63,700 bases of DNA, filler included, from Welwitschia mirabilis (GCA_051453625.1; 5 parts of one record of this genome joined end to end with filler, not necessarily neighbours in it), one strand, 5' to 3'. Shown: positions 1,582 to 49,800, counted from the first letter of the whole stretch. Program-made: numbers and translations. The notes: generated by a model from the sequence alone, not told the origin.

Positions 1582-1587
1582 AAAAGT

Positions 1588-21740: not shown

Positions 21741-21752
21741 GTTTGAAGGGGG

Positions 21753-26436: not shown

Positions 26437-28211
26437 TGTTAATATGTAAAAATTAACATTTATATCAAGTGTTTCAGGCTAATTTATTATAAATGAAGAC
26501 AATAATTAAATTATTTTAATCATAAAATATGTCTTCTATTGTTTTTAAAATAAAATTAAATGTTATGTTTTTCTCCATATTAAATTGCAGATATTTAAGC
26601 CACTCTTAGAACACATGGCGGAAGATGGACTCAATTCCGCATAAAACAACAATCGCAAATGAAGACATGAGGTGGTGACACATAGCAAAAGCAATNNNNN
26701 NNNNNNNNNNNNNNNNNNNNNNNNNNNNNNNNNNNNNNNNNNNNNNNNNNNNNNNNNNNNNNNNNNNNNNNNNNNNNNNNNNNNNNNNNNNNNNNTGGTG
26801 CCACAGAGCAAAGGCATCTAAAGACATGTGGTAGAGGCATGTGGAGGTGCCATTAGACCTATGTGACAATTTCCACCAAATGCTACATGACAACCTCCAT
26901 TAAATGCTAAATGATGAAGATTCTACCTAATGCTAGAGGATAGAATCTAACCTACCTAATGCTAAATGACAAAGATTATACATAATACTACAAGCTAAAA
27001 ATGTAACCACCCGTCACCCCCATCTATTCTTATAAAAGAGCCTTGAATCCTTTATTCTCATCATCTTTGCCTTGGAGAAATTGAAGACTTTATAGCATCA
27101 ACTTATGATGGCTTTCTAGGCAACTCGTTAGGGGAGTGAGTTAGTCTTTGAGAATTACTGATGNNNNNNNNNNNNNNNNNNNNNNNNNNNNNNNNNNNNN
27201 NNNNNNNNNNNNNNNNNNNNNNNNNNNNNNNNNNNNNNNNNNNNNNNNNNNNNNNNNNNNNNNNNNNNNNNNNNNNNNNNNNNNNNNNNNNNNNNNNNNN
27301 NNNNNNNNNNNNNNNNNNNNNNNNNNNNNNNNNNNNNNNNNNNNNNNNNNNNNNNNNNNNNNNNNNNNNNNNNNNNNNNNNNNNNNNNNNNNNNNNNNNN
27401 NNNNNNNNNNNNNNNNNNNNNNNNNNNNNNNNNNNNNNNNNNNNNNNNNNNNNNNNNNNNNNNNNNNNNNNNNNNNNNNNNNNNNNNNNNNNNNNNNNNN
27501 NNNNNNNNNNNNNNNNNNNNNNNNNNNNNNNNNNNNNNNNNNNNNNNNNNNNNNNNNNNNNNNNNNNNNNNNNNNNNNNNNNNNNNNNNNNNNNNNNNNN
27601 NNNNNNNNNNNNNNNNNNNNNNNNNNNNNNNNNNNNNNNNNNNNNNTTATAAAGTTGTTCTTTCTATAATACAAAATTTGTTTTTCTTTGATCTTGATTC
27701 ATGAGTAATATCATAATTAGGATGCTTATTTAACTTTTTAAAATATTAATTTTAATTTCGTTTTGTAAATTCCTCTTTGTTACTTAGTCTTTTAATTTTA
27801 TAGATCTTGAATACTTTAGGAATCCTTTCTTTCTATTACTACTTAAGTATTAAGTATGTGTTAGATTCATCATTTATCATATGTTGGATGAGATTATGCC
27901 CCATGAATTAAAAGTAGTTGAATTAGACCATTTATCATATGATGGATGAAAGTACACCTGATGAATTGGAGTGAAGGATTGCCTTGAACAAATTGATGAT
28001 GCCTTGGAGCTAGTTTGCTTCCCTCTTAATTAAGGCAAAAATCAAACTCTAAGAATCATTTTATTTCTTCTTCTTTTTTCCGTTTTTATATCTTGCATTA
28101 AGATTAAAGTTATTGTAATTCTGGCCAACACCCAATGTTATCCTTGAGGGATAATGATAAGTAAGTTTTTAACTTATTTCTAAATTTGAACATTATACTA
28201 CAATTATCACA
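26437..28211 (+). mobile_element. Probable Athila 3' LTR following the integrase and long 3' non-coding region
   Basis: Starts TGTTAATATG after a purine-rich stretch and ends ...TATACTACAATTATCACA, exactly where homology to 35346 begins. Two gaps lie inside. Confidence 0.5.
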
Positions 28212-30174
28212 TCCCTTGAAATTCTCAATATCTTTTTCAATTTCTTCTTCTCATTATAAATAAAACTCTCTTTCCTTTGGTTTTATTATTTGAAATATCT
28301 CCTACACTTAGAGTTTAGTGACTTTATATCTTGAAGATCTTGAAATTTTAGAGTCTTTAAAATCTTAGAGTTTTTTGTGCTTGTGTGTAAAAATCTTAAA
28401 TGTTGGAAAACTTTAAGTCAAATCATGTGTATAATCTTAGGATATTCTCTTATTTCTTATATGGTATACTTTATTTCTTGAATCTTCTATGGCCTAAACC
28501 TTTTCCTTATAATTCTTTTGTGTCTTATGTGCTTTTATATATGGATTTGTTAAATTCTTGCTCTCTTATTCTATGATCCATTATTTCTTTTAAATAATCC
28601 CTATGTTTTTANNNNNNNNNNNNNNNNNNNNNNNNNNNNNNNNNNNNNNNNNNNNNNNNNNNNNNNNNNNNNNNNNNNNNNNNNNNNNNNNNNNNNNNNN
28701 NNNNNNNNNNNGTGCTTTTATATATGGATTTGTTAAATTCTTGCTCTTTTATTCTATGATTCATTATTTCTTTTAAATAATCCCTATGTTTTTTATTCAT
28801 TTTCATAGCCTATAATACTTATTAATGTACTTGTATGATCCTAAGTATTTTTTGAATCTCGTGTATAATCCTAAGTTCTTAGGTTCTTTTGATAGTTTAT
28901 AAAAATTCTTGTTACTTTATTAAGGCACATGTTTTCTTGGAATTCTTATAAATATTTAAAATGTCTTTCTTATTTCTACTGGTTTCAAATATTTATGTGA
29001 GTATCAGTTATATGTTCAAATATTATTCTTATATGAATCTTGTTTCTTATCAAAATTATTGATGCTTGAAATGTAAGTTCATGAAAGTCAATCTTATCCT
29101 TTCTTAAGATATCTATAGAACTTCAAATCTTGTTATTAAAATGAGAGTTTCAAAAATCATCGAATGAGATAGTGGAATATGAGAATCCATAGATTTTCAA
29201 ATAAGGAAATGGAGTTAATAAATCCATAGATCAGTAAATGAGTCATTGAAAGGATAAAAGGAAAACCACATATTGCCAAATAAGATAATGATAAAATAAA
29301 ATTAAAATCATAGATCACAAATGAGGCAGTGGGAATGATGATCCACAAACCTTCGAATGAGGTAGTGGATAAATAAAAATCATAGATCACCAAATGACAC
29401 AATGCTAAATTATATGATAAAACCAATCAATCTCATTTCCATTTACATGAAAATCTAATGTTTGATTATTTAGAGTCTTTCTTCTTATTTCTTCTTAATC
29501 TATCATGTATCTTATGGTTCTTCTAACTTTATCTTTGCATTGTCTAGGTCATACTGGTGATTATGATGATTTATAGTTCTCCCTCCATACTATTTTATGT
29601 TAAACAGGTAATGAACCATAGCATAGTAAAGGCTAATTTATCTTACCAATGGGGGCATATGAAAATAAAATATTTATTGTTCATATTATACTTGAAAAAT
29701 GTTAATTAGAGTGATTTGTTTCTTATTATAACTTGTAATCTTGTTATACCTTATGATTAACTTTTTATTTCCAAAAAATTTGCAGTCATTCATTTGTAAT
29801 ATACTTATAAACATTGCATCTTTAAAATATTAAGATACCAACTTGATCTATTTCTTAACCTTGTAGTTTTAGTTTTAACTAATTACAGTTTTGGTTTTAA
29901 TTTAAAAAAGCTTAGAGTTGTAACTTTACTTAAAGCTTGAGTTGAATAACTTTTAGCTAGCATGTATTATTTTTCTATTGTAGATATACCTTTCTTATAG
30001 GGCTCAACCTTTAAGTGTTCATCCTTTTATTTAAAGTTTTCAACTAAAGCATACCTTTTTTTAATCATTATAATTTATAAGTAATACATAGTCTTGATCG
30101 TAAATGTTAAGAATATTGCATTTTAGTATTAGAGTAACATTTGAAGTTTTTAGGTGAAAAGTATGGATCTTATA
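28212..30174 (+). repeat. Tekay-like LTR 1 (5'-truncated)
   Basis: Homologous to 35346-37111. Ends GGATCTTATA, followed after 3 nt by the PBS-like TGATATTAGAGT. Confidence 0.65.
29150..29410 (+). repeat. Seven degenerate ~36-42 bp tandem units within LTR 1
   Basis: Recurring core CATAGATCAC-AATGAGGCAGTGG with A-rich linkers. Confidence 0.75.
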
Positions 30175-30177
30175 ATT

Positions 30178-30189
30178 TGATATTAGAGT
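30178..30189 (+). promoter_or_regulatory. Decayed tRNA-Met PBS
   Basis: TGATATTAGAGT vs TGGTATCAGAGC (9/12), at the same position as 37115-37126. Confidence 0.6.
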
Positions 30190-31815
30190 CTAGGTTGTGA
30201 TTTTGCTAGCCATTATTTTTGTCAAGCTATTATAAACTTTAACATCAAAGCCTAGAGCTAAATATGTATGCTTACTGAGGTGCTATTATTTGTAAGAAGA
30301 TCTTTTTCTTCTATTTAGATAGAAATTTAACATACTCTTGTCTCCCTAAACAAATGGCCATTAATTTAAGATTTGGATTTCATATCCAAAGTAGAATTAG
30401 AAAGTAAGATTTATATGAGATTTTGTATTCATTTAAGGTACTAAAGAAATTGGAAGATAGTTTCCAAAATAGTGTTAAGTATATTTAGAAAATGTAAAGA
30501 AAAGATTTTTAAAAATAAAATAAAAATAATTATTAATAAGCTAAGATTATCCATTCTAATTTAAACCACTCATATAACATAAGTTACCTTTTTAAATAAA
30601 TGAATAAAGATATAACATACTAAGAAGAGATTAGGTCAAATACCTAAAGACTCCCTCCTAAGTTTAGAAACTTATACTTAGAATTATGTTATATGTAGTC
30701 CTTGTTTAAGCATAGAATGTTATAACTATATGAAATGAAAGGTTTAGCAAAGAAAATATTTTTTAAGAAAATGTTGATAAAATAGAATTTTCCAACCACT
30801 ATGTTGAAGAATTTTTTTGGCTTCAAAAGTATGCATAATAAAAACATAAGCCTTCTTTTAGGTTTTATCTTATTACTCTTTTCTTTATAAATGGAATTGA
30901 GACTTTAGCTAAGAAGCAACCTTCTTAGCCTATTATTCAAAATAATTGATAGATCATATAGAGGAGAGGCTATAACTTTTATAGAATATGATCAAAATTA
31001 TGAGAACTTAGGGCATTCATTTTCATTTAAGTGTCCTACACACTAATCATGTGTGACAACATCATACATAGGCATTTATTAGGTCATCTTTTGAAATCCA
31101 GATATTGATAATAATGCCTTTACTTCCATAGTAGCATAATTTCTCCTATTTTAGCAAGTAGTATCACTAGATAAATTCAATTTTAAATCCAACAAAAGTA
31201 CTACATGCAAGGGTAGTCATTAAAATCTCATAAATAGTTATAACTCATATGACTTTCAAATATCATATGCTTTGCTCACCTTTTCTTTATTGGCATTATG
31301 ACACAAAGGTGTGTATTATTCTTACAAGGAAAGGATGTTATCACTTAATAAATGTATTGATCTCATAAACAATTAGTTTAACAATAAAATTCCTAATAAA
31401 ATTAGATATTTAAAGGTCTTAGACATCTCAAAATAATATATCATGTTTTCCACACAAACATTAATATAAAAAACACAAAAGAATAAAATTAATATGAATG
31501 AAATAAGGTATTTTTTGCCACAGAAGAAAGCTAAAGTTGGAGAAAACATAGTAGAAGAGAAAAGAGGAAAAGAAAGTATCATTTAAGAAATTATGTAAGA
31601 TTATCAAAGACATTCTAGATGATAAGGTTAAAAAGGTCATTATCTCTTATTATACAGTGGAGTATCAATGTTTTCTTATGATAGATGAATATGAGTACAT
31701 CACAAAAATGAATTATATTATAAAGGCTTGCATATTACATAAGAGTAGTATGTCCTCCTACATAACTTCCAAGAATACAATGGAGATCAATTTAGAGAAT
31801 GTCATTATGAAAGAG

Positions 31816-32700
31816 TCAGGCAAAGAGGGCTAAGAAACACAAGAACAAAAAGTCTAGCATAAACACATCCATACTCAATTTATGATCTAATGATTCTTGA
31901 GTAAAGGAATAAGCCAAATGCAAAACATTTACAATGGCAACATTAGACAGACATTCAATTACATTATCATTTAAAGAAGATGAGGAATAAGAGATTATGG
32001 AAGATGATGTAATAGACAGCACACATACATCCTTTCCATCTTGCTTAAATAAAACTAGGTCAAGTGCATTAACAGCATGACCACATGAAATAAGCATATT
32101 AACCCAATCAAGTAGATTATCTACATCATTATCACACTCAAACAGTAACCTTATACTAGTTGTTAGCTCTAGTAGTACTACTCCAAAACAATATACATTC
32201 CCATTGGTTGTAGTCCTCAACATATGTGAGTACTTAAGAGGAACATACCCAAGTGTGCCTACCATTACAGTGATCACATGTGTTTCTTTGAGGTTCAGTA
32301 GCCTTTTTACCTGACAAAGCTTAGAGTCAAACAAATTAAAGTTCTTGTTTAAGAGTATATGTTTATTTCTTTCATGTCTCTATGTATGATCTAAAAGAAT
32401 AGTCATGATGGAGAAAGTTTAGTAACTTGATAGTATCTATTACTACTTTTAACCTTCTAGGCCAATTAATGTACCCAGCTCTATTATCTGTTTTTTGCAT
32501 TACTATTTAGTTTTATTTAATATAATATATTTGGTTCATTTAGATATCTCTTTCACAAAATCCTAGCAATTCTGATAGTTTCCATATGATCTTCATGATA
32601 AAAGTCATTAGAGCATGCTTCTAAATTTTGGTAAGTAACTATTTAAGATCTGATCTTATTGAAAATGCATTTGAATCAATATGTAATTAATTTTACATGA
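31816..32700 (-). pseudogene. Receptor-like kinase pseudogene, copy A (LRR-X type, EMS1/MSP1/BRI1-like kinase domain)
   Basis: Juxtamembrane VTYQNLEACSNDF; INWPRRLKVVIDTIKLLNFLHHD; IIHRDMKE; ETHVITVMVGTLGYVPLKYS...TTNGNVYCFGVVLLELTT; VLHLAYSFTQESLDHKLSM. Frameshifts and stops are present and no DFG is intact. Confidence 0.88.
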
Positions 32701-33759
32701 AATTTGTTCCCTATTCATTCATGAGAAGATCTATTTTTGTCCTATGTATGTACTTCATTGATGCTTTTGGTCCTATCTTGTTATGAATTTGGCTTATAAG
32801 GAAGTGGATGACTTGTAGCCAAATATATGTTTCAATAAACTAAAAGCACAAGAAGAAGCTACAAGGGGATGGATGGTGTCATCTGTAGAAAAAGGAATTA
32901 TTTGTTTTATATCCATCAAAGAAAACACTCATTGGTTTTAAGAGGTAATGAGCAGAAGCATCAAAGAAGCATTGAAAGAAATGTACAAGAAAGAAGTATA
33001 GAGTGGAATAAATTATAATTTATAGGATTACCCTAGGTTATTAGTGATTATTGATGTTGTTTAAAAAAAATAAATAGGAGTCATTAAATCTAGTGAGTAA
33101 GCATACCAATCATTATGAATTTGTAGATGCAAATTGGTTGTTCTTATAATTAAGTTTTTATAAAATATTTTAGAGTGTAAATAATTTATAAACACATATG
33201 TTTTATTTAATTAGCCATTACTTAAGTCTATTGCAAACCATAATTTCCTTTGTCACATAGATGTTTCATTGATTAACATTTGTATTCTTCTGGGATCTAC
33301 TTAGGAGTCTACAGGAGTAGCCCTCAACATTCTTAAAGTTTATTCTTTGAATATCAAAAGTGCTTATCATTATTAATAGATGGATGTTGGAACTTGAGAG
33401 TATTGAATATAATTTATAATAAGTTGAAAAAGAGATGTTACAAAGTTCCATTGTACTATTAATATAATACATCATTCACACTAACAGGTAAAATACTAGA
33501 AAAACTTTAAGATATTATATCTAAATTCATGCAAAACACCTTTATCTAACAAAACATTTTAGAATTTTTTAATTAAAATTTTATATACATTACTTGTTAA
33601 ATTTATAAATTTGTTTTTACTTCTATTTAATTTTTAATTTATATTATTCATTTAATAAATATTTACTAATGTATGAATTACTTTATTAAAAGTATAGATA
33701 AATATTTATAAACTCAGATTATTATTATGTTTGATTTTAATTAATGCTTTTGATACAAA

Positions 33760-34400
33760 TCTTGTGATGGTTCCTTTGACTCAAGAATTAGAAGGGAAGC
33801 TTAAGTTAATAGAGAAAATTTTGCATATGATAAAACATAATAAAGTCAAATATTCATTTAAGAAAGTAAGACCAATAGAATTTCAAGGAGATTATTTTTT
33901 TTCTTAGTTTATCTTTTTTTAATTTTTAAAGTTTCATCATTTAANNNNNNNNNNNNNNNNNNNNNNNNNNNNNNNNNNNNNNNNNNNNNNNNNNNNNNNN
34001 NNNNNNNNNNNNNNNNNNNNNNNNNNNNNNNNNNNNNNNNNNNNTTCATCATTTAAGGGCATATTTTGTTTTGATAAAAAATCAAAATTGGCATCCATAT
34101 TTCTAGGACCATATTAAATAATTAGAAGAATAGAACCTATCACTTATGAATTAGCATTACTATCATAATTTTCTTTACTACATAATGTCTTTCATGTTTC
34201 ATTATTGAGAAAATGTATTTCTAACATGACAAAGATTAGTACCATTTAAGAAGTGAACATTCAACTAGATTATACATTTGAAGCTTAACTAAATAGGAAG
34301 AGAAATCTAACTTTATGGAGTGTAATGATTAGGAGAGACAGAAGTAGAAGCTACTTAGGTACATAAAATAGAGATATTATAGTGGAAATCTAAGTTTTTT
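33760..34400 (+). pseudogene. Tekay integrase C-terminus/chromodomain remnant, copy A
   Basis: KLASIFLGPY*IIRRIEPITYELALLS*FSLLHNVFHVSLLRK resembles the chromovirus GPF...VHNVFHVSMLRK block. It is followed by the PPT TAAGGGTTGGAGAA. Confidence 0.85.
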
Positions 34401-34441
34401 ATTTAACTTTTTAAAAGGAAACTTTTTAAGGGTTGGAGAAA

Positions 34442-37111
34442 TGTCACATCCATATTTTTGAAGATCTAATTATTTATTACAAATAGTTAAATAAAAACTA
34501 AATGAAAATAATTTTACTCTTGTATAGCCCACTAAGATGATTAATTATTAGATTATTCATTTATTCTTTATTTATTAGGATATTATTATTTTTTGAGATA
34601 CAATTCTGTACTTCTTTATTTAATTAATAGTTTTGATGGCTAAATTTGTAGTTATATAAATATTTTTTTTACTTTATCTTGTAACTGTTGAATTTAATGT
34701 ACCATGATTAGTATATTCCCTTAATTTTTCATTTTTTTTATTTTAGTGCATAAAAAAGATCCTTGTGGTAGCTATAATTATTAAGATGTATTATGTTAGC
34801 TTATTTTATGTTTTTATTTTAGTAGTACATGCTAAAGTAACATCCATGATTATAATGTTCCATTTTATTTTGTTAGTGGTTAACATGTATTCATTATGGT
34901 AAATATTTCTATGTGGCAAAATCTTATCTTGATGTTTCTATTGAAATTACATGACAAATGTCTCATCTTGATTCTTTTCTTAATGATTGAAAGTAGTGGT
35001 ATATTTTCAAAATTTAGCATTTTCTTTTGAATGGCTTATTTGAGTAAATACCATTGATTCTTTATTTATTCTAAAAATATTAAGTTTTCATGTAACTAGG
35101 CTTTCACTTCTTTATACTTATTTTGCAAAATGACAAGAACTTTTGAATTATGTAACTTATGTATTGATGATGAAGGCATCTTCTTCATATCTATTATTTA
35201 TTTATTCTTGCCAAAATATTATGGCATCTTAATCATTTATTATTATGATGATGAAATATTAAACATACCCAACAACTAGATAATGTAATGAGTGGGGCTT
35301 AGGGAATCATAATCATTTCTTAAGAAGAGTAATGACTTCTATTTATTCCTTAAAATTCTCAATATATTTTGAATTCTTTATTCTCATCATAAATAGAACT
35401 CCCTTTCCTTTAGTCTTATTATTTGAAATATCTTATAGACTTGGATGTTGGTGACCTTATACCTTGTAGCTTTGAAAATTTTAAAGTCTTTAGAATTTTA
35501 GAGTCTTTGAATCTTAGGAATAGCAATCATGAAGCTTGGAAAAATGTACATCAAATCATATCTAAGATATTTTCTTATTTCTTATATGGTATAATGTATT
35601 TCTTGAATCCCCTATGACCTAAACCTTTTACTTGTAATTCTTGCATATTTTATATTCTTTTATATATGGATTTGTTAAATTCTTACTCTCTTATTCTATA
35701 ACCCATTATTTCTTTTAAATAATCTCTATGTTTTCTATTCATTTGCATAGCCTATAATGCTTATTAATTTACTTGTGTGATTCTAACTATATTTTAAATA
35801 CCTTGTATGATATTAAATTATTTGATTCTTTTTGTATCTAAAAAAACTCTTGTTTCTTTAATAAGTTATATGTTTTCTTGGAATTATTAAAATTTACTAA
35901 AATATATTTCTTATTTCTATTTCTTTAACATATTTCTATGAGTGTTTTCTATATATTTAAAGATTATTCTTATAATAATCTTATTTTTTTAAAAACTTCT
36001 TAATGCTTGAAAAGTAAATCTATAAAATTAAATATTATCCTTTCTTGAGATATCTTTAAAACTTCAAATATTCTTATGAAAATGAGAGTTTCATAGATTG
36101 TTGAAGGAGGCATTGGAATATGGAAACCATAGATTACTAAATGAGATAATGGAATTGATAAATCTATAGATCACTGAATGACACAGTGGAAAGATAAAAA
36201 GGAAACCATAATTACTAAATGAGATATTTGTAAAATAAAATTAGAACCACACATCACCTAATGAGGTCATGAAAATGATGATCTATAGATCACTGAATGA
36301 GGCAATGAAAAATTAAAAATTACAAATCATCGAATGAAGTAGTGGTAAATTCTATAATAAAACTAGTTAACCTTATTTTTATTTTTATGAAAAATATAAT
36401 GTTTGATTATTTGGAGTCTTTCTTCTTGTATCATCTTAATATGTTTTGTATCTTATGATTCATATTACATTTATCTTTTCATTGTCTGAGTTATATTAGG
36501 GACTCTTATAATTCATGATTCTTACTCCATATTGTCTTGTATTAAACAAGTGATAAACTTTAGTGTAGTAAAAGATAATTTATCTTACTGATGAGGGCAT
36601 ATGAAATGAATATTAACTGTCTAGATTTTGCTTAAAAATATTAATTGGATTAATTTGTTCTTTGTTATAACTTGTGATCTTGTTATGTCTTATGATTAAC
36701 CTTTTATTTATAAAACTTTTTAGTCCTTTATCTATAATAGACTCATAAACATTATATCTTTAAGATATTAAGATGTCAAATTGATCTATTTCTTAAATTC
36801 ATAGTTTTAGGTTTAATTACTTATAGTTTTAGTTTTAATTTAAAAAGGCTCGGTTGTAGTTTTACTTGAATCTTTAGTTGAATAAGTTTTAGCTAGTATG
36901 TGTTGTTTTTCTATTGTAAATATACATTTCTTATAGGACTCAATCTTTTGATTTTCACCCTTCTATTTAAAGTTTTTAGCTAGAGCATACCTTTCTTTTT
37001 ATCATAATAATCTATAATTGATGAATAGGCTTAATGGTAAATGTTGAGGACATCACATTTTAATATTAGAGTAACATTTGAAGTATTTAGGTGAAAAATG
37101 TAGCTCTTTCA
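34442..37111 (+). repeat. Tekay-like LTR 2 (complete, ~2.67 kb, shared between the two units)
   Basis: Starts TGTCACATCC directly after the PPT and ends GCTCTTTCA 3 nt before a PBS. Its 5' end matches 46560-46838 and its 3' portion matches 28212-30174. Confidence 0.75.
36091..36350 (+). repeat. Seven degenerate ~36-42 bp tandem units within LTR 2
   Basis: Recurring core ATAGATCACTGAATGAGGCA; counterpart of 29150-29410. Confidence 0.75.
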
Positions 37112-37114
37112 ATT

Positions 37115-37126
37115 TCATATCAGAGC
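37115..37126 (+). promoter_or_regulatory. tRNA-Met PBS
   Basis: TCATATCAGAGC vs TGGTATCAGAGC (10/12), immediately after the LTR-terminal CA plus ATT. Confidence 0.7.
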
Positions 37127-37885
37127 CTAGGTTGTGATTTTATTAGGCATGATTGTTGTTAAGCTATTATAAACTTTAACTTCAGAGCCTAAAGTTGACC
37201 ATGTGTGCTTGTTAAATTAGTAGTGCTTAAAATAAGATCTTTTTCTTCTATTTAGATGAAAATTTAATATACTCTTATCTTCTTGCACAAATAGATATTA
37301 ATTTAAGATTTTTATTTTATATCCAAAATGAAAGTAGGAAGTAATATTTATATGAGATTTTGTATTCATTTAAGGTAATGTAAAAACTAGAAAACAATTT
37401 CCAAAGTAGTGTCAACTATATTTAGGATCCTAAAGAAAAGGTTTCAAAATAATAATAATAATAATAATAATTATCAATAAGCTAATGTTATCCCTTATAA
37501 TCTGAGCCACTCATATAAAATAAGTTACCTTTTTAAAAAAAAAAAATAAAGATGTACCATACTAAGTAGAGTTTAGGCCAAATACCTATACCCCTTCTTC
37601 TAAGTTTGGAAAGTTGTACTTAGAATTATGTTGTATGTAGTCCTTGTTTAAGTCTAGAAAGTCATGACTATGTAAAATAAAAGGTTTAGTGAAGAAAATA
37701 TTTATTGAGAAAATGTTGATCAAATGGAATTTTCAATCACTACATTGAAGAATAATTTCTAAGGCTTTAAAAGTGCATATAATAAACCCATAAACCTTCT
37801 TTTAAGCTTTATTTCATTACTCTTCTCTACAAATGGCACTAAAACTTTGTTGAAGAAGTGGCATTCTTTGAGCATTATTCAAGAC

Positions 37886-40800
37886 TATAGGATATAATGG
37901 AACAAAAATAATGAAGATGAGATTGAGAATCACATACTTTATGATGAAGATGATCTTAAATTTATATAAGGAAATAAGCTTATCAACTCTAAATGAATTG
38001 TATAAAAATTAGGAAAATAATTTAACACCTTTAAACTAATTGTAGAAAAATTAGAAAACTAACTTAATAGCTCTAAAATGAGTGTAGAAAAATTATAAAA
38101 TTAACTCTAACTTTTTAATTCAAATGCAACAAAAAATTTAAACTTAAACTAACTGCTAATCATAATTTCAACTAACTTATTCAAATCCAAAACTAACTCC
38201 AGCAAAAGATGAAATCTTTAATACTAGTCCTTACTTATTTTTCTATAAATTCTCAAACTCTTTCTTAGTTCTTCAAATTTGACTTTAGATAAAGCTTTTG
38301 TAAGAATATTAGCTAATTAAACTTTACTTCTATAATGCATTAGAATAATCTTCTTGTTTTCTAAACTTTTTAAAGAAAATAATACTTAATGTTAAAATGC
38401 TTTGTCTTACCATAAAATACTAGATTATTAGAGATAGCTATAGAAGCTAGATTATCAACAAAATTTTTTGTGGATTTCTTTTAATCATGGTTTAAATCTA
38501 ACAAAAAATTTCTTAGCCATAAAGCTTGATTAGTAGTTACTACAGTAGCTATGTTTGTTACTTCAGTAGTTGATAGAGCTATTACATCCTACTTCTTTGA
38601 ACTCCAAAAGAAAAGACCTAAACCAAGGCTAAGCAAATAGTTAAAAGTGCTTTTCATATCATCGCTAGAACCTACCTAATCAATACCATATAAAACTATG
38701 CAAATNNNNNNNNNNNNNNNNNNNNNNNNNNNNNNNNNNNNNNNNNNNNNNNNNNNNNNNNNNNNNNNNNNNNNNNNNNNNNNNNNNNNNNNNNNNNNNN
38801 NNNNNNNNNNNNNNNNNNNNNNNNNNNNNNNNNNNNNNNNNNNNNNNNNNNNNNNNNNNNNNNNNNNNNNNNNNNNNNNNNNNNNNNNNNNNNNNNNNNN
38901 NNNNNNNNNNNNNNNNNNNNNNNNNNNNNNNNNNNNNNNNNNNNNNNNNNNNNNNNNNNNNNNNNNNNNNNNNNNNNNNNNNNNNNNNNNNNNNNNNNNN
39001 NNNNNNNNNNNNNNNNNNNNNNNNNNNNNNNNNNNNNNNNNNNNNNNNNNNNNNNNNNNNNNNNNNNNNNNNNNNNNNNNNNNNNNNNNNNNNNNNNNNN
39101 NNNNNNNNNNNNNNNNNNNNNNNNNNNNNNNNNNNNNNNNNNNNNNNNNNNNNNNNNNNNNNNNNNNNNNNNNNNNNNNNNNNNNNNNNNNNNNNNNNNN
39201 NNNNNNNNNNNNNNNNNNNNNNNNNNNNNNNNNNNNNNNNNNNNNNNNNNNNNNNNNNNNNNNNNNNNNNNNNNNNNNNNNNNNNNNNNNNNNNNNNNNN
39301 NNNNNNNNNNNNNNNNNNNNNNNNNNNNNNNNNNNNNNNNNNNNNNNNNNNNNNNNNNNNNNNNNNNNNNNNNNNNNNNNNNNNNNNNNNNNNNNNNNNN
39401 NNNNNNNNNNNNNNNNNNNNNNNNNNNNNNNNNNNNNNNNNNNNNNNNNNNNNNNNNNNNNNNNNNNNNNNNNNNNNNNNNNNNNNNNNNNNNNNNNNNN
39501 NNNNNNNNNNNNNNNNNNNNNNNNNNNNNNNNNNNNNNNNNNNNNNNNNNNNNNNNNNNNNNNNNNNNNNNNNNNNNNNNNNNNNNNNNNNNNNNNNNNN
39601 NNNNNNNNNNNNNNNNCTCTATTATATTTACTTAGCTTCTCATTTTACATTAGGGGAGTGATTATAGGCTTGTAGTATTCCATCTTAAACTTCTTAATAC
39701 TTCTTTTGCATATCTAAATTTCCCAATAACAATTCCTTTCTATAGCTACTAAATTTTCATACCAAAAAAATAAGAACATCTCTTCTAGATTAATCTTTTC
39801 ATATACTTGCATCATTTAATATTTAAGTTATTTCACCATTCTAACATTACTTCCTATTATAAGTAGGCCATCAACATACAAAGAAATAGCAATTAGGTTA
39901 CCATTAGTAATTTTCACATAAAGAGTTAATTCACTCAAACTTTTTTTGAAATTAATTTGGAGTAGATGGTTATTAATCCTACTATGCTAGGCTCTTGAAG
40001 CCTACTTTAGACCATACAAGGCATTCTTAAGTATATAAACCTTATATTCATTTCCTTTTATAATAAAACCCTCTAGCTGATCAACAAATATCCCATTTAG
40101 GAAGGTTGCCTTGATATCAAGCTAGTAAAATCTCTAATATTTTGAGCCACTAATGTCAATATCATTTTGATAATGTCAAGTCTTACTACTAATGCAAATG
40201 TCTCTGAGAAATCCAAATCAAATGCTAAAAATATCCTTTAACAACTAGTCTTATCTTGTGTTTGTTAATAGATCCATCAAGGTAAACTTAATTTTGTATA
40301 CCCACTTTATTCTAATAGATTTCTTATGGTTAGGTTTACCCATTAAGATTCATGTCTGACTTTTCTTTATCATTCTCAACTCCTCCTTCACTGCTTGAAT
40401 TCACTTTGAATCCATTGAAGCTTCTTCATAGCTGGCAGGCTCAAAAATAGCTAGGTTACATCTTGCATAGATATCAACAAGTGATCTTGTATCTCTTACA
40501 AGTTCATGATCATATGTTCCATCATCAATTGTATCATCCTCCTACTCCTTCTACATCAATACAGGCCTTGGAGTAAGTTTGTTAGGCTTCACTTCTATTT
40601 TTTTCTAACTCCAGGCTATAAGTTCATTGAACTTAATGCTTCTGCTAACTATCACCTCTATAACCTTTGATGATACTACTGTAGCCCACAAAATTCTAAC
40701 CTCTAACCTATAATCCATCTTATCTTTCTTTACATCTAAAATATGTTTGTAGCATATATTTACAAATACCTTCAGATTTTATACAGAAGGTTTGTAACCA

Positions 40801-43217
40801 TGCCAAGCTTCAAATGGTATCTTTTTCTTTAGTATTTTTTGAGTCTATTAAGTAAATATACTAAATTACTAACAGCCTCTGTGCAAAAATTCTTAACCAT
40901 TTTCTTTTTAAAAAGTAAATACCTAAACACCTCCATAATTATTCTATTTTTTCTGCCACTTACTCCATTTCGTTAAGGAGTTTAGGTTGTTGTAAATTAA
41001 TGCTTAATTTTACATTTTCATAAAACTGATTAAAATTATCAGAAGTATATTTAGTCCCATTATCTAACCTAACCACCTTGATTTTCAAACCACTCTGGTT
41101 CTCAATTTAGTTCTTAAATTTTCAAAACACATTGGCAATCTCAAACTTTAATTTCAAAAGTAAACCCAATACATTATACTAACATCATCAATAAATGCAA
41201 CATAATACCTACTACCACTGAAAGATAAGGTTTTCATTGGGTTACAAACATTAGTATGGATAATTTATAGCTTTTTAGTTGCTTTCTAAGCTTTATTAAC
41301 TAGAAATGATTATCTAAATTTCTTTTTCAATTAACAAATCTCACATACTTCATGCTTTGCTGTAATCATTGGCATATCTTACACAAGATTATTCCTTTAT
41401 GAGAAATGTAATGCAGAATAATGAAAATACTCTAATAATTTTTGTAAAAGTTCATATTGATCAACTAAACTAGGATATGCAGAAGCAGCATATTTTCAAT
41501 CCAAAGTGAAGCACTTATCTTTCAACTTCAGTTCATAACCAATAAAGTCCTATATTATGCATGTGTTATGTTTAAAAAACATAGCATAATTCTTCTCTAA
41601 TAGCTAACCCATACTTAGAATATTTTTATTATTTTTATATATATAACACATATTAAACAAGTTTAATATCTATTGGAGTTTCAACTACTACCACTCCTCT
41701 TTCTTTGAATTCAAGATAATATCTATTACCAATTTTGACCTTTGAAATGCATTTCCTATCTAGATCCCTGAACATACTCTCATCAAAAGTTATGTGGTGA
41801 CTATAGCATTATCAATTAGCAATTCATCACTACTTTTATTAGTTTCAAAATAAGTTTTAATAAACAATTGCTTTTTTGGCTTCTACTAGTTTTCTACAGC
41901 TTATGCTTGATGGCCTTACTACTTATTCTTGCAAATCTTCTCCATGTGTCTCATTTATTTATATGACTTGCACTAAATGTCAAGTTTAAACTAGTAATAC
42001 TTACAATGATTTGATGTCTTCTTGCAATGTAAGCATGGAGGAAATTTTCCTTTATTTCCTCCATCTTTACTACTTGAAGCTCCTTTCTTATGTCTCTAAT
42101 CTCTAGTTTATTTCCTTCCTATGTTGCCTGATTGTGCATTTTTTATTATCTCATATTGAAATGCACCTTCAATCACTTCTTCTTATCTAATTACCCTTCT
42201 TTGTTTTTTGCTTTTAAGTCATTAGTCAGCTCTATAAAATTAATCTATGAAAGATCTCTTAAGTTCTCAAGTGAAGATATTTTTAACTCAAATCTTTAGG
42301 TAAGCTAATAAGAACTTTCTCTACAATCTTTCTATTAGTAGGCTCTTCCCCAAGCAATCTAATCTTATTAACTATGGCCTTGAGTTTATTTACATAGAAT
42401 GCTCTCAAATTCCTTCATCATTTAAATCTTAAATTTACTTTTAAGATTCAACATTTAGATACTTTTGGTCTTGTCATTGCTTTTATATTCCTTCTCAAGT
42501 GAATCCCAAACTTTATTTGGAGTTTCATAAGTTATTATCTTTATGAAAACATCCTATGGGAGTGTATAATAGATGCTAGTTTTAGCTTTAATTTTTTTTG
42601 ACTTCTCCTCCATGTGAAGTTTAATCTAAGATAAGATTGGATTATCTAGTAGTGGTAGTGGATCCAAGTCATTTTCCACCATCTCCCACAAGTCAAACAC
42701 CTATAAAAAGGCCTTTATCTTAATAGTCAAGAACTATAGTTTTCTCTAAAAAATAGAGGAAGTAAGGATGGGAAGTTGTTTAAGGTAATTGGGTAATTTT
42801 TTGGGGTTGAAAATTAAGGTTTATAAAAAAGGTTTCTCACTTTCACAGTCCCCTTAAAAATGAGGTACTCTAATATCAATTGTAGGATATAATAAAAGAA
42901 AAATAATGAAGATGAGACAGAGAATCACACATTTTATTATGAAGATGATCTCAAATTTATATAATAAAATAAGCTTAACAACTCTAAACTGATTGTAGAA
43001 AAATCAGAAAACTAACTTAATAGATCTAAACTAATTGTAGAAAAATCAGAAAACTAACTTAATAGCAGTAAACTGATTACAAAAACATAGGAAACTAACC
43101 CTGACTTTTTAATTTAAATGAAATAAAAAATTTAAACTTAAACTAACTGCTAATCATAATTTTAGCTAACTTATTCAAGTACTAAACTAATTCTAGCAAA
43201 AGATGTAATCTTTAACA
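37886..43217 (-). mobile_element. Full-length decayed Ty1/copia element (Ivana/Oryco-like), ~5.3 kb, nested in unit B
   Basis: LTRs at 37886-38223 and 42881-43217. Perfect TSD AAGAC at 37881-37885 and 43218-43222. Reverse PBS ACTCTAATATCA at 42867-42878. The empty site is visible in unit A near 30940. Confidence 0.92.
38240..42790 (-). pseudogene. Copia gag-pol pseudogene
   Basis: Gag IKIKAFL*VFDLWEMVEND; RT KNALYGLK and AISLYVDGL; C-terminus TKALSKVKFEELRKSL. Many stops and a ~0.9-kb gap. Confidence 0.88.
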
Positions 43218-44067
43218 AAGACAAATGGTAGATCATATAGAGGATGTGTTATAGCTTTGCTAGAATATTATTAAAACTATTAAGACTAGGGGGGTCTATT
43301 TTCACAAAAGTAACCTGTGCCTCAATCCTATGTGGTGACATCATACACAAGCATCCATTAGGTTTTTTTTGAAATCTAGATGTTGATAAGGCCACCTTTA
43401 CTCATAAAATAGCAACACTTCTCCTATTTTAGCAAGTAGCATCATCGCTATTAAATCCATTCACTTTCAAATCCAATAAAAATACTATGTACAAGGACAC
43501 TCATCAAAATGGTAAAAATGGTTCATAGCTCATATGTTTCTTAAATATGACATGCTTTTCTCACCTTTTCTTTCCTAACATTATGGCATAAAAACTTGTA
43601 TTATACTTATAACAAAAGAATTTTGTCACTTATTAAATGTATTAATGTCTTAAACAATCAGTTTAATCTCAGAAAGTTAGATATCTAAAGAGTTTAGATG
43701 TCTCAAAATAATGTATCATGTTCTCTAGGAAAAATCATTACTATAGGAAACATGATAGAAGAGAATGAATATGAAAGAAAGAAGCTAGTTTCAATCATAA
43801 AAGAAGGCCTAAAGTTGAAGAAAATAGATGAAGATCAGAAAGATGAAAAAAGCTTCATTTGCAAAATTATTCAAGGTGATGAAAGATATTTTACATGATA
43901 AGATCGAGAATATCATTATCTCTAATTGTATAATGGAGTCTCCATGTTTTCTTATGATAAGAAAATACGGCTAAACCACAAAAATGAAGCATATTATGAA
44001 GCCTTGAGTATTGAGTGAGAGTAGTATGTCCTCTTATATGACTTCTAAAAAGACAATGAAGACTAAT

Positions 44068-44940
44068 CTAGAGAATGCCATTATGGAAGAGTTGCAAAAG
44101 ACAGTTCAGAAATACAAGAATAAGAAGTCCAACATGAACAATATTCATGCTCAATCTATGATCTAATAATTCTGGAGTGAAGGAATAACCCAAATGCAAA
44201 AAATTTATGATGAAAAATTGATCACTATAGTTATTAGAAGAAGAGAAGGAACAAGAGATTATGGAATATGATACAATAAACAATGCACATACATCCTTTG
44301 CATCTTGACAAAAGCATTAATAGCTTAGCCATAGGAGATATGCATATGAATCCATTCAACTAAGTTATCTACATCATTATTACTTTTAAATAGTGGAATT
44401 CTACTAGTCATTATCTCTAATAGTACTACTCCAAAATTGTATACATTCCCATTGGTTGTAGACCTCAAGGTATGTAAGTACTCATGAGGGACATACCCAA
44501 ATGTGCCTATTATTATAACTCGCATGTATTTCTTTGAGATTCAATGGCCTTGTCATCTCAAAATTAGAGTCAAATGGATTAAAATTATTATTTGAGAGTA
44601 TGTTACTTTCTTTTACATCCTATGTACAACTTCATAAAAATAGTCATGATGGAGAAATTTTATTGCCATGATAGTACCTATTCCTATTTTAGCCTTTTAG
44701 GATATTCAAGATGTGTATCTCTATTATTTATAATGAATCATTGTTTACTTTCATTTAAAATAGTATATTTGATCTATTCAGAGCTTCATTTCATCAAACT
44801 CTAGTGACTCTAATGGTGTTGATATGGTCTTCATGACAAGATTCATTGAAGCATGATTTTAAAGTTCGCTAAGCAATTATTGAAAGTTTGATCTTGTCAA
44901 AAATGCATCTAAAGCAACATGTAATTCATTTCTCATGAAA
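44068..44940 (-). pseudogene. Receptor-like kinase pseudogene, copy B
   Basis: IIGTFGYVPHEYLHTLRSTTNGNVYNFGVVLLEIMTSRIP...NLVEWIHMHI and FLHLGYSFTPELLDHRLSM. Colinear with 31816-32700. Confidence 0.88.
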
Positions 44941-45999
44941 TTATTCCCTATTCATTCATGAGAAAATCTATTTCTATCCTGTGTGCATAATGCATTGATG
45001 CATCTAGTCTTAGCATGTTATAAATTATATGGAAGTGGATGACTTATAGTCAAATATCTATTCACATAAAGTAAATGCAAAGAAAGAAGCTAAAAGGAGG
45101 TCATAGGCAGTATCATTCATAGAAAAACTACTTATTTATTTTATATCCATCAAATTTAACACTTATGGGTTTTGGATTATAATGTGCAAAAGTGCTAAAA
45201 AAGCATTAAAAGAAGCATAGAACAAAGAAGTGTGAAATGGAAGAGACTACAATTTCTAGGACTCCGCTAGGTAATTGGTGGTAAGTGATGTTATTTAGAA
45301 AAAATAAATAGGACTCATTTAATTTGATGAGTGAACATAGGAACCATTAGAATTTTTTAAACATGAACTAGCTCTTCGCATAACTAGGTTTTGAAAAAAT
45401 CTTTTAGAGTTCAAATGAATTTCCAAATGCATATTTTTAAATAATTATCTATTACTTAAGTCTATTGCAAATCTTGATTTCCTTTATCCCATATATCTTT
45501 CATTGATAGTAATCTTATTCTTATGGGATCGATTTAAATTTTTGTAGAAGTATCTCTTAACATTCTTAAGGTTTTTTATTTGAATATCAGAAATGCTTAT
45601 TATTATTATTAATAGATGGATTCTAAAACTTGGAAGTGTTATATATACTTTACAATAAGTTAGAAAAGAGATGTTACAAAGCTCCATTATATTATTAAGA
45701 TAATACTCCATCCCTACTAAATAGGTAAATACCAAAAAATTGAAAATTTTAAGTATTCTATATAAATTCATGAAAAATACCTTTACCTAATTAAACATTT
45801 TAGAATTTTTTATTGAAATTTTATATATGTTATTTGTTAAATTTACAAATTTTTTCCCTCTTATTGAATTTTTAATTTATATTATTCGTTTAAAAAATAT
45901 TTACTAATGTATGAATTACTTTTATTAAAAATATAGATAAATATTTATAAACTCAGGCTACTATTATGTTTGATTTTCATTTAATACTTTTGATACAAA

Positions 46000-46520
46000 T
46001 ATTGTAATGGCTTCTTTAAGTCAATAATTAGAAGAGAAAATTAAGTAAATAAGGTAAAGTTTTCATATGATAAAAGATAAGCGAAGGATAATAGAATTTC
46101 ATGGAGAACTTTGTTGTTTTTTTAAAAAAGTTTCACCATTTAAGGACATATTTCATTTTAGTAAGAAAGGCAATTTAGCATTCATATTTCTAGGGGCATA
46201 TCAAATAATAAAAATAATAGGACCTATGGCTATGAATTATCTTTACTATCATAATTATCTTCACTTCATAATGTCTTTTATGCTTTATTAGTGAGGACAT
46301 GTATTTGTAACATAACAAAAATTATTTCCATTCAAAAAATGAACATTAAACTAGATTATACATCTGAAAGATTTACCATATAAAATTTTGAATAAAAAGC
46401 AAGTTATACTCAAAGGAAGAGTAATTCAATTTTATGAAGTATAATAATTAGAAGAGACAAAAGCAAAAGCTACTTAGGTACATGAAATAGATATATTATA
46501 GTGGAAACCTAAGCTTTTTA
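46000..46520 (+). pseudogene. Tekay integrase C-terminus remnant, copy B
   Basis: KKVSPFKDIFHFSKKGNLAFIFLGAYQIIKIIGPMA resembles LKVSPxKGVxRFGKKGKLSPRFIGPF. PPT TAAGAGGTGGAAAA lies at ~46546-46559. Confidence 0.85.
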
Positions 46521-46559
46521 TTCAAGTTTCCAATAGAAAACATTTTAAGAGGTGGAAAA

Positions 46560-46838
46560 TTTCACATCTAGATTTCTAAAAATCTAAGAATTTAGTCCAA
46601 TAGTTAAATAAAAACTAAATGAAAATAATTTTACTCTTATGGAGCTCACTAAAATTATTTAATTTTTACATTCTTTGTTTATTCTTTATTCATTAGCATA
46701 TTATTATTTTTGAAGATATAATTCTTTACTTTTCTATTTAATTAATATTTTTACTAGCTAAATTTGTTGTTATATAAATATTATTTTATTTTATTTTGTA
46801 ACTATTACATTTAATATAACATCATTATTATATTTCCT
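46560..46838 (+). repeat. Tekay-like LTR 3 (5' ~280 bp, interrupted by the Sirevirus-like element)
   Basis: Colinear with 34442-34720, with homology stopping abruptly at TATTGG (46839). Confidence 0.75.
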
Positions 46839-49800
46839 TATTGGTAAAATCTAAGTTTGATGATTTTACTTATCAAATATGATGCATTTAATGTGTAGAT
46901 AGGATATTAGAGAACATCTAAGTTACAAATAGGGATCAAGATAGTCAAATCTCAAAGCTTAAAGTTCATAGAAGATTTAAATCAAAGTTCATGAAGGATA
47001 GACAAAAATGACTAGAGACATTTGTAGATTTGAAGATGTTTATGGTAAAGACACCTATTATCTTAAAGATGTTTACACTGAATCTGAAGCTGATAGTGGT
47101 GAAAGATGTTTATCTTGAAAAATATGTCTATATTAAATCAAGGAGGTAAAACAGATAAATACATTTAATAAAATTGTTAAGAACCCATGGTTATTAATTA
47201 ATTTAATGAGTTTTTGTAGCTAGTCCATTATGCAAAGTTCCCTAGCACCGGGCGACCAACTCTTAAGACCAGGTGACTGACTTATTAAAAAACTGTAATA
47301 CTACTTTAGAATTGGATGACTGCACACATAACATCTGGCAACTAAATGGATGTAGATTAATAAAATGGCTAGTTGAAGAATAGGCAACAGAGTGCGTCAT
47401 ACCAGGTGACCAATCTGACACATCAGGAAGAAGACCGATTCAATAATAGGTGACCGAAAAATCATATTTGGGTGATCCAATTTGAGCCTATGTGTAAGAA
47501 CTTGGGTAAAGATGGGCGACTGCTAAATGAACATGGACGGCTACATTACAATCTGTGAAATTTAGTCTGATGACAGAACGAATGACTATCTAATTCAGAT
47601 GAGTGACCACACAATAATCAGTAAAGCTTGAATCTAGCAAATGTAAGGGTGACCAAAGGACGTAATTATAGGCGATTGCATTCTGCCCAGAATCTACCCT
47701 CATAAGGTCAACCAAGTAATAAATGTTAGGACGACTGAGTAAAGGTCGATTGCATATAAACATAAGGATAGCCGAATATGCACTGTTCTGTACTGAGAAA
47801 TATGTGACAAACAAGGATAACCGAAGGTTAGAAATAAGGGCGACCGCAGGTTTCGGCTACTGAGTATTATATCAAGGTTGACTGTACAAAGAAAAAATGT
47901 AACTATTATGATTTTAACTATTCATCAAAAAGAATGCAACGGTTCATTAAAAGTGCAAGGGTACCTTATGCATCTTTAGTATTTAAGCTCTCTTCTAATT
48001 AAAAGAGACAAATGTTTTTTTCTTATAAGATCAGAGATTAAAAAAGAAGAACGATAATGCTTTTTCAGCATTATATTTGAGCTAGTTTCAAGTTCAGATT
48101 TCTAATTGAATCTACCATTGCACCTACTTATAGGAAGAGATTGCTATACCTATGAAAGAAAATCTGTGCATCCATGCATTCTTCTTTCTTCTATTCATCT
48201 GTGGTTGAGGATTAGCGATAAAATCCTTTGTGATTATGAAAGGTTATTTAGTAAGCCTGAAAACCATTATTNNNNNNNNNNNNNNNNNNNNNNNNNNNNN
48301 NNNNNNNNNNNNNNNNNNNNNNNNNNNNNNNNNNNNNNNNNNNNNNNNNNNNNNNNNNNNNNNNNNNNNNNNNNNNNNNNNNNNNNNNNNNNNNNNNNNN
48401 NNNNNNNNNNNNNNNNNNNNNNNNNNNNNNNNNNNNNNNNNNNNNNNNNNNNNNNNNNNNNNNNNNNNNNNNNNNNNNNNNNNNNNNNNNNNNNNNNNNN
48501 NNNNNNNNNNNNNNNNNNNNNNNNNNNNNNNNNNNNNNNNNNNNNNNNNNNNNNNNNNNNNNNNNNNNNNNNNNNNNNNNNNNNNNNNNNNNNNNNNNNN
48601 NNNNNNNNNNNNNNNNNNNNNNNNNNNNNNNNNNNNNNNNNNNNNNNNNNNNNNNNNNNNNNNNNNNNNCAAGGACAAATGGACGTTGGACAAAAAATTA
48701 GCTGCAACTTGAAACTTCAAAGGTATAAATGCCATCTTCTATGCTATATGTCCAGAAGATTTTAAAAAAGCTATGAATTGCACCATTGCCAAAGAAGCTT
48801 GGGACATATAGGAAATTGCTTATGAAGAAATCAATCTAATAAAGTAAACTAAGCTTTAGATGCTAATCACTCAGTTTGAAGATTTAAAGATGGAATANNN
48901 NNNNNNNNNNNNNNNNNNNNNNNNNNNNNNNNNNNNNNNNNNNNNNNNNNNNNNNNNNNNNNNNNNNNNNNNNNNNNNNNNNNNNNNNNNNNNNNNNNNN
49001 NNNNNNNNNNNNNNNNNNNNNNNNNNNNNNNNNNNNNNNNNNNNNNNNNNNNNNNNNNNNNNNNNNNNNNNNNNNNNNNNNNNNNNNNNNNNNNNNNNNN
49101 NNNNNNNNNNNNNNNNNNNNNNNNNNNNNNNNNNNNNNNNNATGGCACTACCTACCATACATGAAATTCCTAATACCAAAGATGAATCTGACCAAGAACC
49201 AAAAGTGATAATGAAGTGGCTCTTCTAGCTAGAAGATTTAGATGCTTCATGCAGAGATGACAAGGTGGAGGTCAATCTAAGAGACTGTCAAGAAGGAAAA
49301 AGAAAGGACGTCATAAAATTTAGTGCTATTCATGCAAAGGTTTTGGTCATACATTAAATGTCTACTCAAATAATAGAANNNNNNNNNNNNNNNNNNNNNN
49401 NNNNNNNNNNNNNNNNNNNNNNNNNNNNNNNNNNNNNNNNNNNNNNNNNNNNNNNNNNNNNNNNNNNNNNNNNNNNNNNNNNNNNNNNNNNNNNNNNNNN
49501 NNNNNNNNNNNNNNNNNNNNNNNNNNNNNNNNNNNNNNNNNNNNNNNNNNNNNNNNNNNNNNNNNNNNNNNNNNNNNNNNNNNNNNNNNNNNNNNNNNNN
49601 NNNNNNNNNNNNNNNNNNNNNNNNNNNNNNNNNNNNNNNNNNNNNNNNNNNNNNNNNNNNNNNNNNNNNNNNNNNNNNNNNNNNNNNNNNNNNNNNNNNN
49701 NNNNNNNNNNNNNNNNNNNNNNNNNNNNNNNNNNNNNNNNNNNNNNNNNNNNNNNNNNNNNNNNNNNNNNNNNNNNNNNNNNNNNNNNNNNNNNNNNNNN

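Follow-up and report, generated by a model that had tools for sequence, protein, structure and literature searches.

HSP90 and receptor-kinase gene fragments within a decayed Ty3/gypsy-type LTR array of Welwitschia mirabilis

Two tandem units share a middle LTR

A 63,700-nucleotide stretch of Welwitschia mirabilis DNA (GCA_051453625.1, five parts of one record joined with filler; hereafter the window) was analyzed for an array of long terminal repeats (LTRs) that encloses fragments of two host genes, a cytosolic HSP90 and a receptor kinase resembling the phytosulfokine receptors (PSKR). By its appearance the window is draft plant assembly, with an A+T content of approximately 72% among called bases and 31 runs of N. 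Self-BLAST revealed two units in tandem, A and B, arranged as LTR-internal region-LTR-internal region-LTR, with the middle LTR shared and the units approximately 75-84% identical. Within each unit, an LTR end is followed by a site resembling a primer-binding site (PBS), an internal region devoid of gag, protease, reverse transcriptase (RT) and RNase H, an integrase C-terminus, a purine-rich tract resembling a polypurine tract (PPT) and an LTR start. These cis signals were all located in both units, in the order that an earlier note on this DNA had read from the sequence. The elements of the array are listed below.

28211-30174, plus strand: LTR1, truncated at the 5' end; corresponds to LTR2 positions 904-2670, is 79-81% identical to 35345-37111 and contains a 100-N gap at 28612-28711
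30178-30190, plus strand: PBS-like site of unit A, with three mismatches to TGGTATCAGAGCC, about 4 nt past the LTR end
30175-30931, plus strand: leader at the 5' end of the unit A internal region; non-coding, without Pfam or tblastn match, and present in moderate repetition; 80% identical to 37112-37882
33752-34279, plus strand: Ty3/gypsy integrase C-terminus (linker and SH3) of unit A, with stops; tblastn with protein P0066, E 2.8e-12, colinear across 33945-34044
34428-34441, plus strand: purine-rich PPT-like tract before LTR2, by direct reading; TGTCACATCC at the LTR2 start, 34442
34442-37111, plus strand: LTR2, the shared middle LTR and the sole complete one; 2670 bp, TG...CA, ending in ...TTTCA
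37115-37127, plus strand: PBS-like site of unit B, with two mismatches to the motif, about 3 nt past the LTR2 end
37112-37880, plus strand: leader at the 5' end of the unit B internal region, reaching as far as the Copia site; 80% identical to 30175-30940
45992-46441, plus strand: integrase C-terminus of unit B, by tblastn
46547-46559, plus strand: purine-rich tract before LTR3, by direct reading; TTTCACATCT at the LTR3 start, 46560
46560-46840, plus strand: LTR3, the first approximately 282 bp only, 83-84% identical to 34442-34723; homology ends at about 46838

The first 903 bp are absent from LTR1, LTR3 breaks off after approximately 282 bp, and the absent parts were found nowhere else in the window. 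Self-BLAST and a repeat search paired three blocks at 75-81% identity: 28211-30940 matched 35345-37882, 30944-33840 matched 43223-46080, and 34045-34723 matched 46132-46840. Compared with unit A, unit B has an additional 5.3 kb at A position 30940/30944, where a Ty1/copia element is nested.

37881-43222, minus strand: nested Ty1/copia in unit B (element 37886-43217), with LTRs of approximately 337 bp at 37886-38223 and 42881-43217 and an N gap at 38706-39616

The layout given for both units by the earlier note is borne out, and needs amending for the Copia element that interrupts unit B and for the truncation of LTR1 and LTR3. Within LTR2, a 76-bp direct repeat was also observed (36125-36200 and 36245-36319, 78% identical).

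The 13-nt motif TGGTATCAGAGCC, a PBS of the tRNA-iMet type, is represented in the window by decayed matches. When up to three mismatches were permitted, five window matches were found against 6.9 expected by chance, that is, no excess. Two of these five adjoin array LTR ends at a distance of 3-4 nt, and a third lies 3 nt past the LTR of another Copia element (16433-16618). The PBS reading is thus drawn from the position of the sites after LTR ends, the number of matches lending it no support; no tRNA genes were found in the window for comparison. The LTR/PBS and purine-tract/LTR junctions recur at approximately 30174/30178 and 46559/46560.

The assembly joins of the array are sound. The 100-N gap at 33945-34044 is spurious, as the same 12 nt are repeated at both flanking contig ends (33933-34056) and the integrase alignment is colinear across it. 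Unit B forms a single N-free stretch from inside the Copia element through the core, integrase tail and PPT to LTR3, and three observations back the join over its Copia gap: the paired Copia LTRs, the duplicated target site and the colinear alignment with unit A. Around the other gap, 28612-28711, the sequences on both sides (28570-28760) match unit B with 78 bp in common (35657-35734), suggestive of an overlap or a small duplication.

The only retroelement coding remnant is an integrase tail

To search for retroelement coding sequence, 72 stop-to-stop open reading frames (ORFs) of at least 45 amino acids (aa) over 27-48 kb and a further 41 shorter ORFs of 28-44 aa were compared with Pfam, and 62 Ty3/gypsy-derived proteins were aligned to the window by tblastn (E≤0.01). 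None of these searches detected gag, protease, RT, RNase H or an integrase core between the PBS and the integrase tail of either unit, in agreement with the earlier note as to the first four. Internal-region matches to the 62 proteins were limited to 33752-34279 and 45992-46441, and 94 tblastn high-scoring segment pairs started within the single 200-bp bin 34000-34199. The ORF at 46058-46288 retrieved 62 relatives by phmmer, among which SH3_Tf2-1 was present in 61, rve in 14, RT_RNaseH in 12, RVT_1 in seven and RVP_2 in four; the direct Pfam match of the unit B integrase ORF was weak (E 0.02). An integrase SH3 tail located just before the PPT marks the array as a Ty3/gypsy-type LTR derivative.

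The more specific label of the earlier note, a chromovirus of the Tekay type, remains a candidate. No Pfam Chromo match was obtained at E≤0.5 in five window ORF pieces (three from the tail downstream of SH3 and two from SH3/linker) or in four long relatives, and a Chromo domain was present in only two of the 62 integrase-tail relatives. By eye the tail looks chromovirus-like, a resemblance that is no test of lineage.

HSP90 and kinase fragments occupy the internal regions

The space between leader and integrase tail holds pieces of two host genes in each unit.

31555-31824, plus strand: cytosolic HSP90 fragment of unit A, corresponding to aa 532-623 of an HSP81-1-like protein 701 aa long; tblastn with P0031, 52%, E 4.7e-22
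31993-32578, minus strand: PSKR-like leucine-rich repeat receptor-like kinase (LRR-RLK) fragment of unit A, a C-lobe pseudogene piece; profile hidden Markov model (HMM) and tblastn with P0001, aa 898-1044
43767-44130, plus strand: HSP90 fragment of unit B with stops and a frameshift, aa 508-633 of 701; tblastn with P0031, E 1.6e-23, and Pfam HSP90 on three ORF pieces
44328-44713, minus strand: kinase fragment of unit B with stops; HMM positions 862-980 of 1040 (44690-44340), independent E-value (iE) 2.5e-17, also tblastn, and Pfam Pkinase E 5.6e-4

For the sense-strand piece, Pfam HSP90 was matched in unit A at 31555-31830 (E 9.3e-16, profile positions 353-439 of 518), and a database word search returned an HSP81-1-like cytosolic HSP90 of 701 aa as the sole relative. 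This fragment had been missed in both units by the earlier note. An HMM built from 26 RLKs matched the unit A kinase over positions 891-1015 of 1040 (iE 1.8e-24) and 816-876 (iE 0.0076). A 187-aa minus-strand ORF at 31819-32379 and its neighbours matched LRR receptor kinases, most of the named ones being phytosulfokine receptor 1/2 at 35-47%; the EMS1/BRI1-type affinity proposed earlier is therefore to be replaced by a PSKR-like one. No protein of similar length resembling this ORF was found in a collection of 5.8 billion proteins.

The kinase piece is demonstrable over approximately 0.6 kb, or about 195 codons. Its catalytic loop is split by a frameshift, with HRD in a frame other than that of the downstream lobe, and DFG is lost; the HMM of 26 RLKs detected no LRR part. 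Both the HSP90 and the kinase pieces are pseudogene fragments, and the latter does not encode a functional LRR receptor kinase, given the lack of an LRR part and of a supported N-lobe and the broken HRD and DFG motifs. The antisense LRR-X kinase fragment of the earlier note is present, antisense and PSKR-like, and reduced to a C-lobe. Two extensions were tried and dropped. A kinase N-lobe and juxtamembrane part, read by eye to about 32920, gave an unexpected Smith-Waterman alignment whose best frame was equalled by five of 300 shuffles, and an extension of HSP90 to its C-terminus at 31825-32030 and upstream, suggestive by eye and with an acidic stretch in a shifted frame, had a best frame equalled by 20 of 500 shuffles.

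The two pieces, HSP90 in sense and kinase in antisense, lie tail-to-tail at most about 170 bp apart, and no poly(A) run occurs at their junction. Together they account for approximately 1 kb of the approximately 3.6 kb of internal DNA that is not of retroelement origin. The cargo is a mosaic, and the remaining 2.6 kb or so matches nothing by Pfam or tblastn. No other gene fragment was detected among the 41 ORF pieces of 28-44 aa from the internal regions 30175-33760 and 43216-46000, none of which had a Pfam match at E≤0.05. Likewise, the core is not bounded by long terminal inverted repeats of the Pack-MULE, CACTA or hAT kind; only short AT-rich pairs were seen, the longest of 35 nt at 71%, and Helitron ends were not searched for. 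The proposal that gag-pol had been replaced by a captured receptor-kinase gene is right in that host fragments lie in that space, and overstated in that the kinase is a pseudogene piece beside HSP90 in a longer mosaic.

Divergence of the units and a probably later Copia insertion in unit B

Kimura two-parameter (K2P) distances between units A and B were as follows: LTR1/LTR2, 0.21-0.25; LTR2/LTR3, 0.18; leader, 0.24; core, 0.31; 3' part, 0.22-0.25. With 1.3e-8 substitutions per site per year as the plant rate, a K value near 0.25 would amount to roughly 10 million years. Identity between LTRs (79-84%) slightly exceeds that of the internal core (75%). LTR1 and LTR2 were also compared for a change-point in identity, as expected of a recombinant LTR; the segments (0.79-0.82) were too uniform to tell.

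The nested Copia element has TG...CA ends and a perfect 5-bp target duplication, AAGAC, at 37881-37885 and 43218-43222; the undisrupted target site is present in unit A at 30939-30943. Minus-strand Pfam matches to RVT_2 (E 3e-07), rve, Pol_BBD and SH3_retrovirus were weak and sub-threshold, and tblastn with the RVT_2-bearing protein P0043 gave a match at 40472-39765 (E 1.3e-13). Its LTR pair is 85% identical (K2P 0.165). Judged by this distance against 0.18-0.31 for the array, the Copia insertion appears to be younger than the split of A and B.

The core is near single copy and no transcript of the element was detected

Depth was analyzed over 28712-35344, a stretch that amounts to one full unit in permuted form without internal repeat and covers unit A and the first part of LTR2, in bins of 222 bp with a likeness floor of 80. 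Two DNA contig sets from two related genomes (X1 and X2) and two runs of raw RNA reads (X13 and X16) were used. The depth profile delimited a core inside the cargo.

30932-32929, no strand: low-copy cargo core of unit A, summed depth 7.7-28.5; borders ±110 bp from the 222-bp bins

Summed word depth was 555-1718 over LTR1 (28712-30265), 37-93 over the leader (30266-30931), with approximately 750 in the bin 30044-30265 that straddles the LTR end, and 18-171 over 32930-34039. It rose to 1060-6872 over the integrase tail and the start of LTR2 (34040-34705), the integrase tail alone reaching 1060-3720, and was 830-6872 over the part of LTR2 at 34484-35344. Single contigs span the core in both sets, at a depth of 5.11 in X1 (31028-32832, four differences in 1802 nt) and 6.68 in X2 (30540-33136, 26 differences), and the core depth is 1.5-5.5 times that of a single contig in the two DNA runs. 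The core is therefore near single copy in both genomes at 80% likeness, the locus is common to both, and the LTR family is present in high copy. X2 held an extra contig of 3746 nt that matches 31974-32305 only, with 65 differences (approximately 80% identical to the kinase fragment), and this contig is probably an expressed parent or paralogous kinase gene rather than a copy of the element.

At a likeness of at least 95%, none of 211 RNA reads from X13 and none of 1007 from X16 corresponded to the element. Only partial fits were given by 203 of the 211 reads and by all 1007, respectively. The reads piled up at 31744-31816, a 73-bp interval in the most conserved part of HSP90, and at 32165-32198, both as partial matches; their loose ends run on into the coding sequence of genuine HSP90 or kinase genes, and the variants they carry, as shown for X13, coincide with the paralogue contig of X2. 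On account of these partial fits, coding loose ends and paralogue variants, the expressed molecules are attributed to the parent genes, not to the element. The array appears to be inert sequence today.

These observations bear on the proposal that the locus belongs to a family resembling large retrotransposon derivatives (LARDs), in which the chimera was retrotransposed in trans, A and B were separate insertions whose adjacent LTRs recombined, and more copies lie elsewhere. Such a family is compatible with the full and ordered set of cis signals in both units, with LTRs slightly more alike than cores, and with the moderate repetition of the leader and 3' internal segments (37-170); copies below 80% identity would be invisible to the depth analysis, and LTR elements commonly capture genes, with 672 reported for rice and 1,343 for sorghum (PMC3726574), and three transduced genes for maize Bs1 (PMC13317346). 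Against it, core depth in the two genomes is 1.5-5.5 times that of a single contig, compared with hundreds of times for the LTRs, one of the extra pieces over the core is probably a kinase gene, the protein collection holds nothing of similar length that resembles the 187-aa ORF, and two chimeras side by side in the same orientation would be improbable if the family were tiny. We regard this scenario as unlikely. The earlier inference of a kinase-carrying family able to have spread receptor-kinase fragments gains no support: a core at a summed depth of about 8-28 compares with 5-7 for single contigs and 555-6872 for the LTRs, no RNA read attained 95% likeness, and only the local array was seen. 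The array is old and dead, it is not amplified at a likeness of at least 80%, and there is no evidence for a kinase-spreading family.

DNA-level patching and local doubling may account for the array

Taken as a whole, the earlier note was confirmed in part as observation and supported in part as interpretation. We consider it probable that the locus is a decayed, non-autonomous complex element of Ty3/gypsy type, with two internal regions and three LTRs of which the middle one is shared, into which host pieces were patched at the DNA level and which was then doubled locally. All that the internal region retains of the element is the PBS with the leader on one side and, on the other, some 150-200 codons from the end of integrase together with the PPT. 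Host pieces were most probably patched into the integrated, internally deleted element by double-strand break repair with filler DNA or by illegitimate recombination. Patching of DNA is suggested by four features: the pieces lie in opposite orientation, their breakpoints fall in coding sequence, poly(A) is lacking, and the filler surrounding them has no recognizable match. The chimeric unit would subsequently have been doubled, either by unequal exchange between its two LTRs or by insertion as one complex element, with the Copia insertion into unit B as a later step. The near-uniform K2P between A and B fits a doubling soon after insertion, whether by unequal exchange or as a complex element made in one cycle, and a local array sharing LTR2 can arise without retrotransposition of the chimera.

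Several points weigh against this reading. Summed contig depth is not copy number, the floor of 80% hides older dispersed copies (the core of unit B is itself only about 75% like that of A), and the depth analysis took in unit A and the first LTR2 part alone. The core-flanking segments are moderately repeated (37-170) and could belong to a non-autonomous subfamily. Unequal exchange of a single element predicts LTR identity below or equal to that of the core, and the opposite was seen; the slightly higher core divergence leans weakly toward two sister elements and hence at least one retrotransposition of the chimera, although faster decay of formerly GC-richer coding DNA could be an alternative cause. 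The array lacks its outer LTR ends, which leaves its target-site duplications unreadable. The DNA-level route of acquisition is argued indirectly, from orientation and the lack of poly(A), and the sense orientation of HSP90 would also be expected from an RNA template switch, which is a possible source of that piece in particular.

Capture at the RNA level would extend such a switch to the whole cargo: in one cycle, RT would have moved from element RNA to a co-packaged HSP90 mRNA and a kinase antisense transcript and back, and the product was perhaps inserted as a two-unit element. The sense HSP90 fragment suits this route, as does the retention of the ends required for replication (PBS and leader at the 5' side, integrase tail and PPT at the 3' side), and abnormal template switching is described as a source of chimeric and complex elements (PMC13317346, PMC1950507). 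The kinase, however, is antisense and tail-to-tail with HSP90, no poly(A) remnant is present, and some 2.6 kb of internal DNA matches neither gene nor element proteins. The facing orientation of the pieces, their ends within coding sequence and the lack of a poly(A) trace make capture of co-packaged mRNA the less likely route, and we give it little credence.

In favour of no capture at all, that is, of host DNA with HSP90 and kinase scraps lying between two same-orientation elements with complementary truncations, the block being tandemly duplicated afterwards, it may be said that the core, as is usual for host DNA, occurs in low copy and that the region is a transposon nest with several other element fragments; yet two complementary truncations would have to mimic one element, leader and tail flank the core identically in both units, and the retained parts are those expected of a single internally deleted element, which makes the proposal very improbable. 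A resident gene between unrelated fragments is likewise unlikely because both units share the same chimeric internal region.

More far-fetched still is the notion of a once-working element that was copied in trans at least once, its copies A and B recombining later, and whose LTR-driven antisense PSKR-like and sense HSP90 RNA gave rise to small RNAs dampening the parents. If true, peptide-hormone signalling and the expression of chaperones would have come under a regulator borne by a retrotransposon. Had the element spread, or given rise to small RNAs directed at its parents, it would deserve moderate interest; the data point the other way.

Comparison with known elements and parent genes

LARDs are multi-copy, non-autonomous LTR families with a conserved non-coding internal domain. 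The array resembles them in its large LTRs (2.67 kb), in the retention of PBS and PPT, and in an internal region without gag-pol coding capacity; it differs in that its core is near single copy at a likeness of at least 80% and in that an integrase coding remnant is still present. Among the host genes, PSKR1 and PSKR2, of LRR-RLK subfamily X, are the best-scoring relatives of the kinase piece (35-47% over the C-lobe), from which it is set apart by its length of about 195 codons, the missing LRR ectodomain, the frameshifted catalytic loop and the lost DFG. The HSP90 piece is 46-52% identical to aa 508-633 of the 701-aa cytosolic HSP90 (HSP81-type), but comprises only about 125 codons and has no ATPase domain.

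As PMC13317346 and PMC3726574 describe them, Bs1 and the elements with captured genes of rice and sorghum share with the array partial, mostly pseudogenic fragments of more than one host gene between LTRs and the absence of a full gag-pol. Bs1 is reported to have an expressed chimeric ORF (PMC13317346), whereas the array pieces are in opposite orientation and riddled with stops, with no detectable transcription and no transposed copies found. Complex elements with a shared LTR are described as "not uncommon" and as originating from adjacent-element recombination or abnormal template switching (Sabot & Schulman 2007, PMC1950507). Their LTR-internal-LTR-internal-LTR layout is that of the array. 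Target duplications and LTR phylogeny tell the two origins apart, but truncation of the outer LTRs removes this evidence from the array. Gene fragments are also described as being moved by filler-DNA repair in connection with transposon activity (PMC3445842). In the portions of the literature retrieved, nothing pertinent joined an LTR element, a receptor-like kinase, gene capture and Hsp90.

Host-gene fragments in plant LTR elements are well documented, and the array adds one more case as well as an example of an LTR-sharing complex element, with little weight beyond annotation. Its practical bearing is that kinase- or HSP90-like scraps in draft plant assemblies can lie in dead retrotransposons and should then be masked, not called as genes.

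Other transposon remains in the window

Beyond the array, Pfam and tblastn showed the window to be a nest of transposon remnants. A second Ty1/copia element occupies 16433-21944 on the plus strand, with 186-bp LTRs at 16433-16618 and 21759-21944 (87.6% identical), a PBS-like site at 16621-16633, SH3_retrovirus at 19396-19710 and RVT_2 at 20330-20671. An isolated Ty3/gypsy fragment unconnected to the array lies at 9891-10418 (plus strand); it comprises an RT piece at 9891-10166 (P0062, aa 438-529, E 2e-4) and a second tblastn match at 10323-10418 (P0040, aa 473-504). Copia RT fragments were matched by the RVT_2-bearing P0043 at 51488-51805 (plus strand) and 63192-63698 (minus strand), the latter running off the window end and matching Pfam RVT_2 as well over 63354-63698 (E 3.7e-25). 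Two repeats adjoin N runs: at 57368-57744, directly after one, a 227-bp stretch recurs, shifted by 150 bp and 100% identical, and at 50417-50843 a 164-bp pair with 94.5% identity lies on either side of another. Both are either short tandem repeats or gap-closing artefacts.

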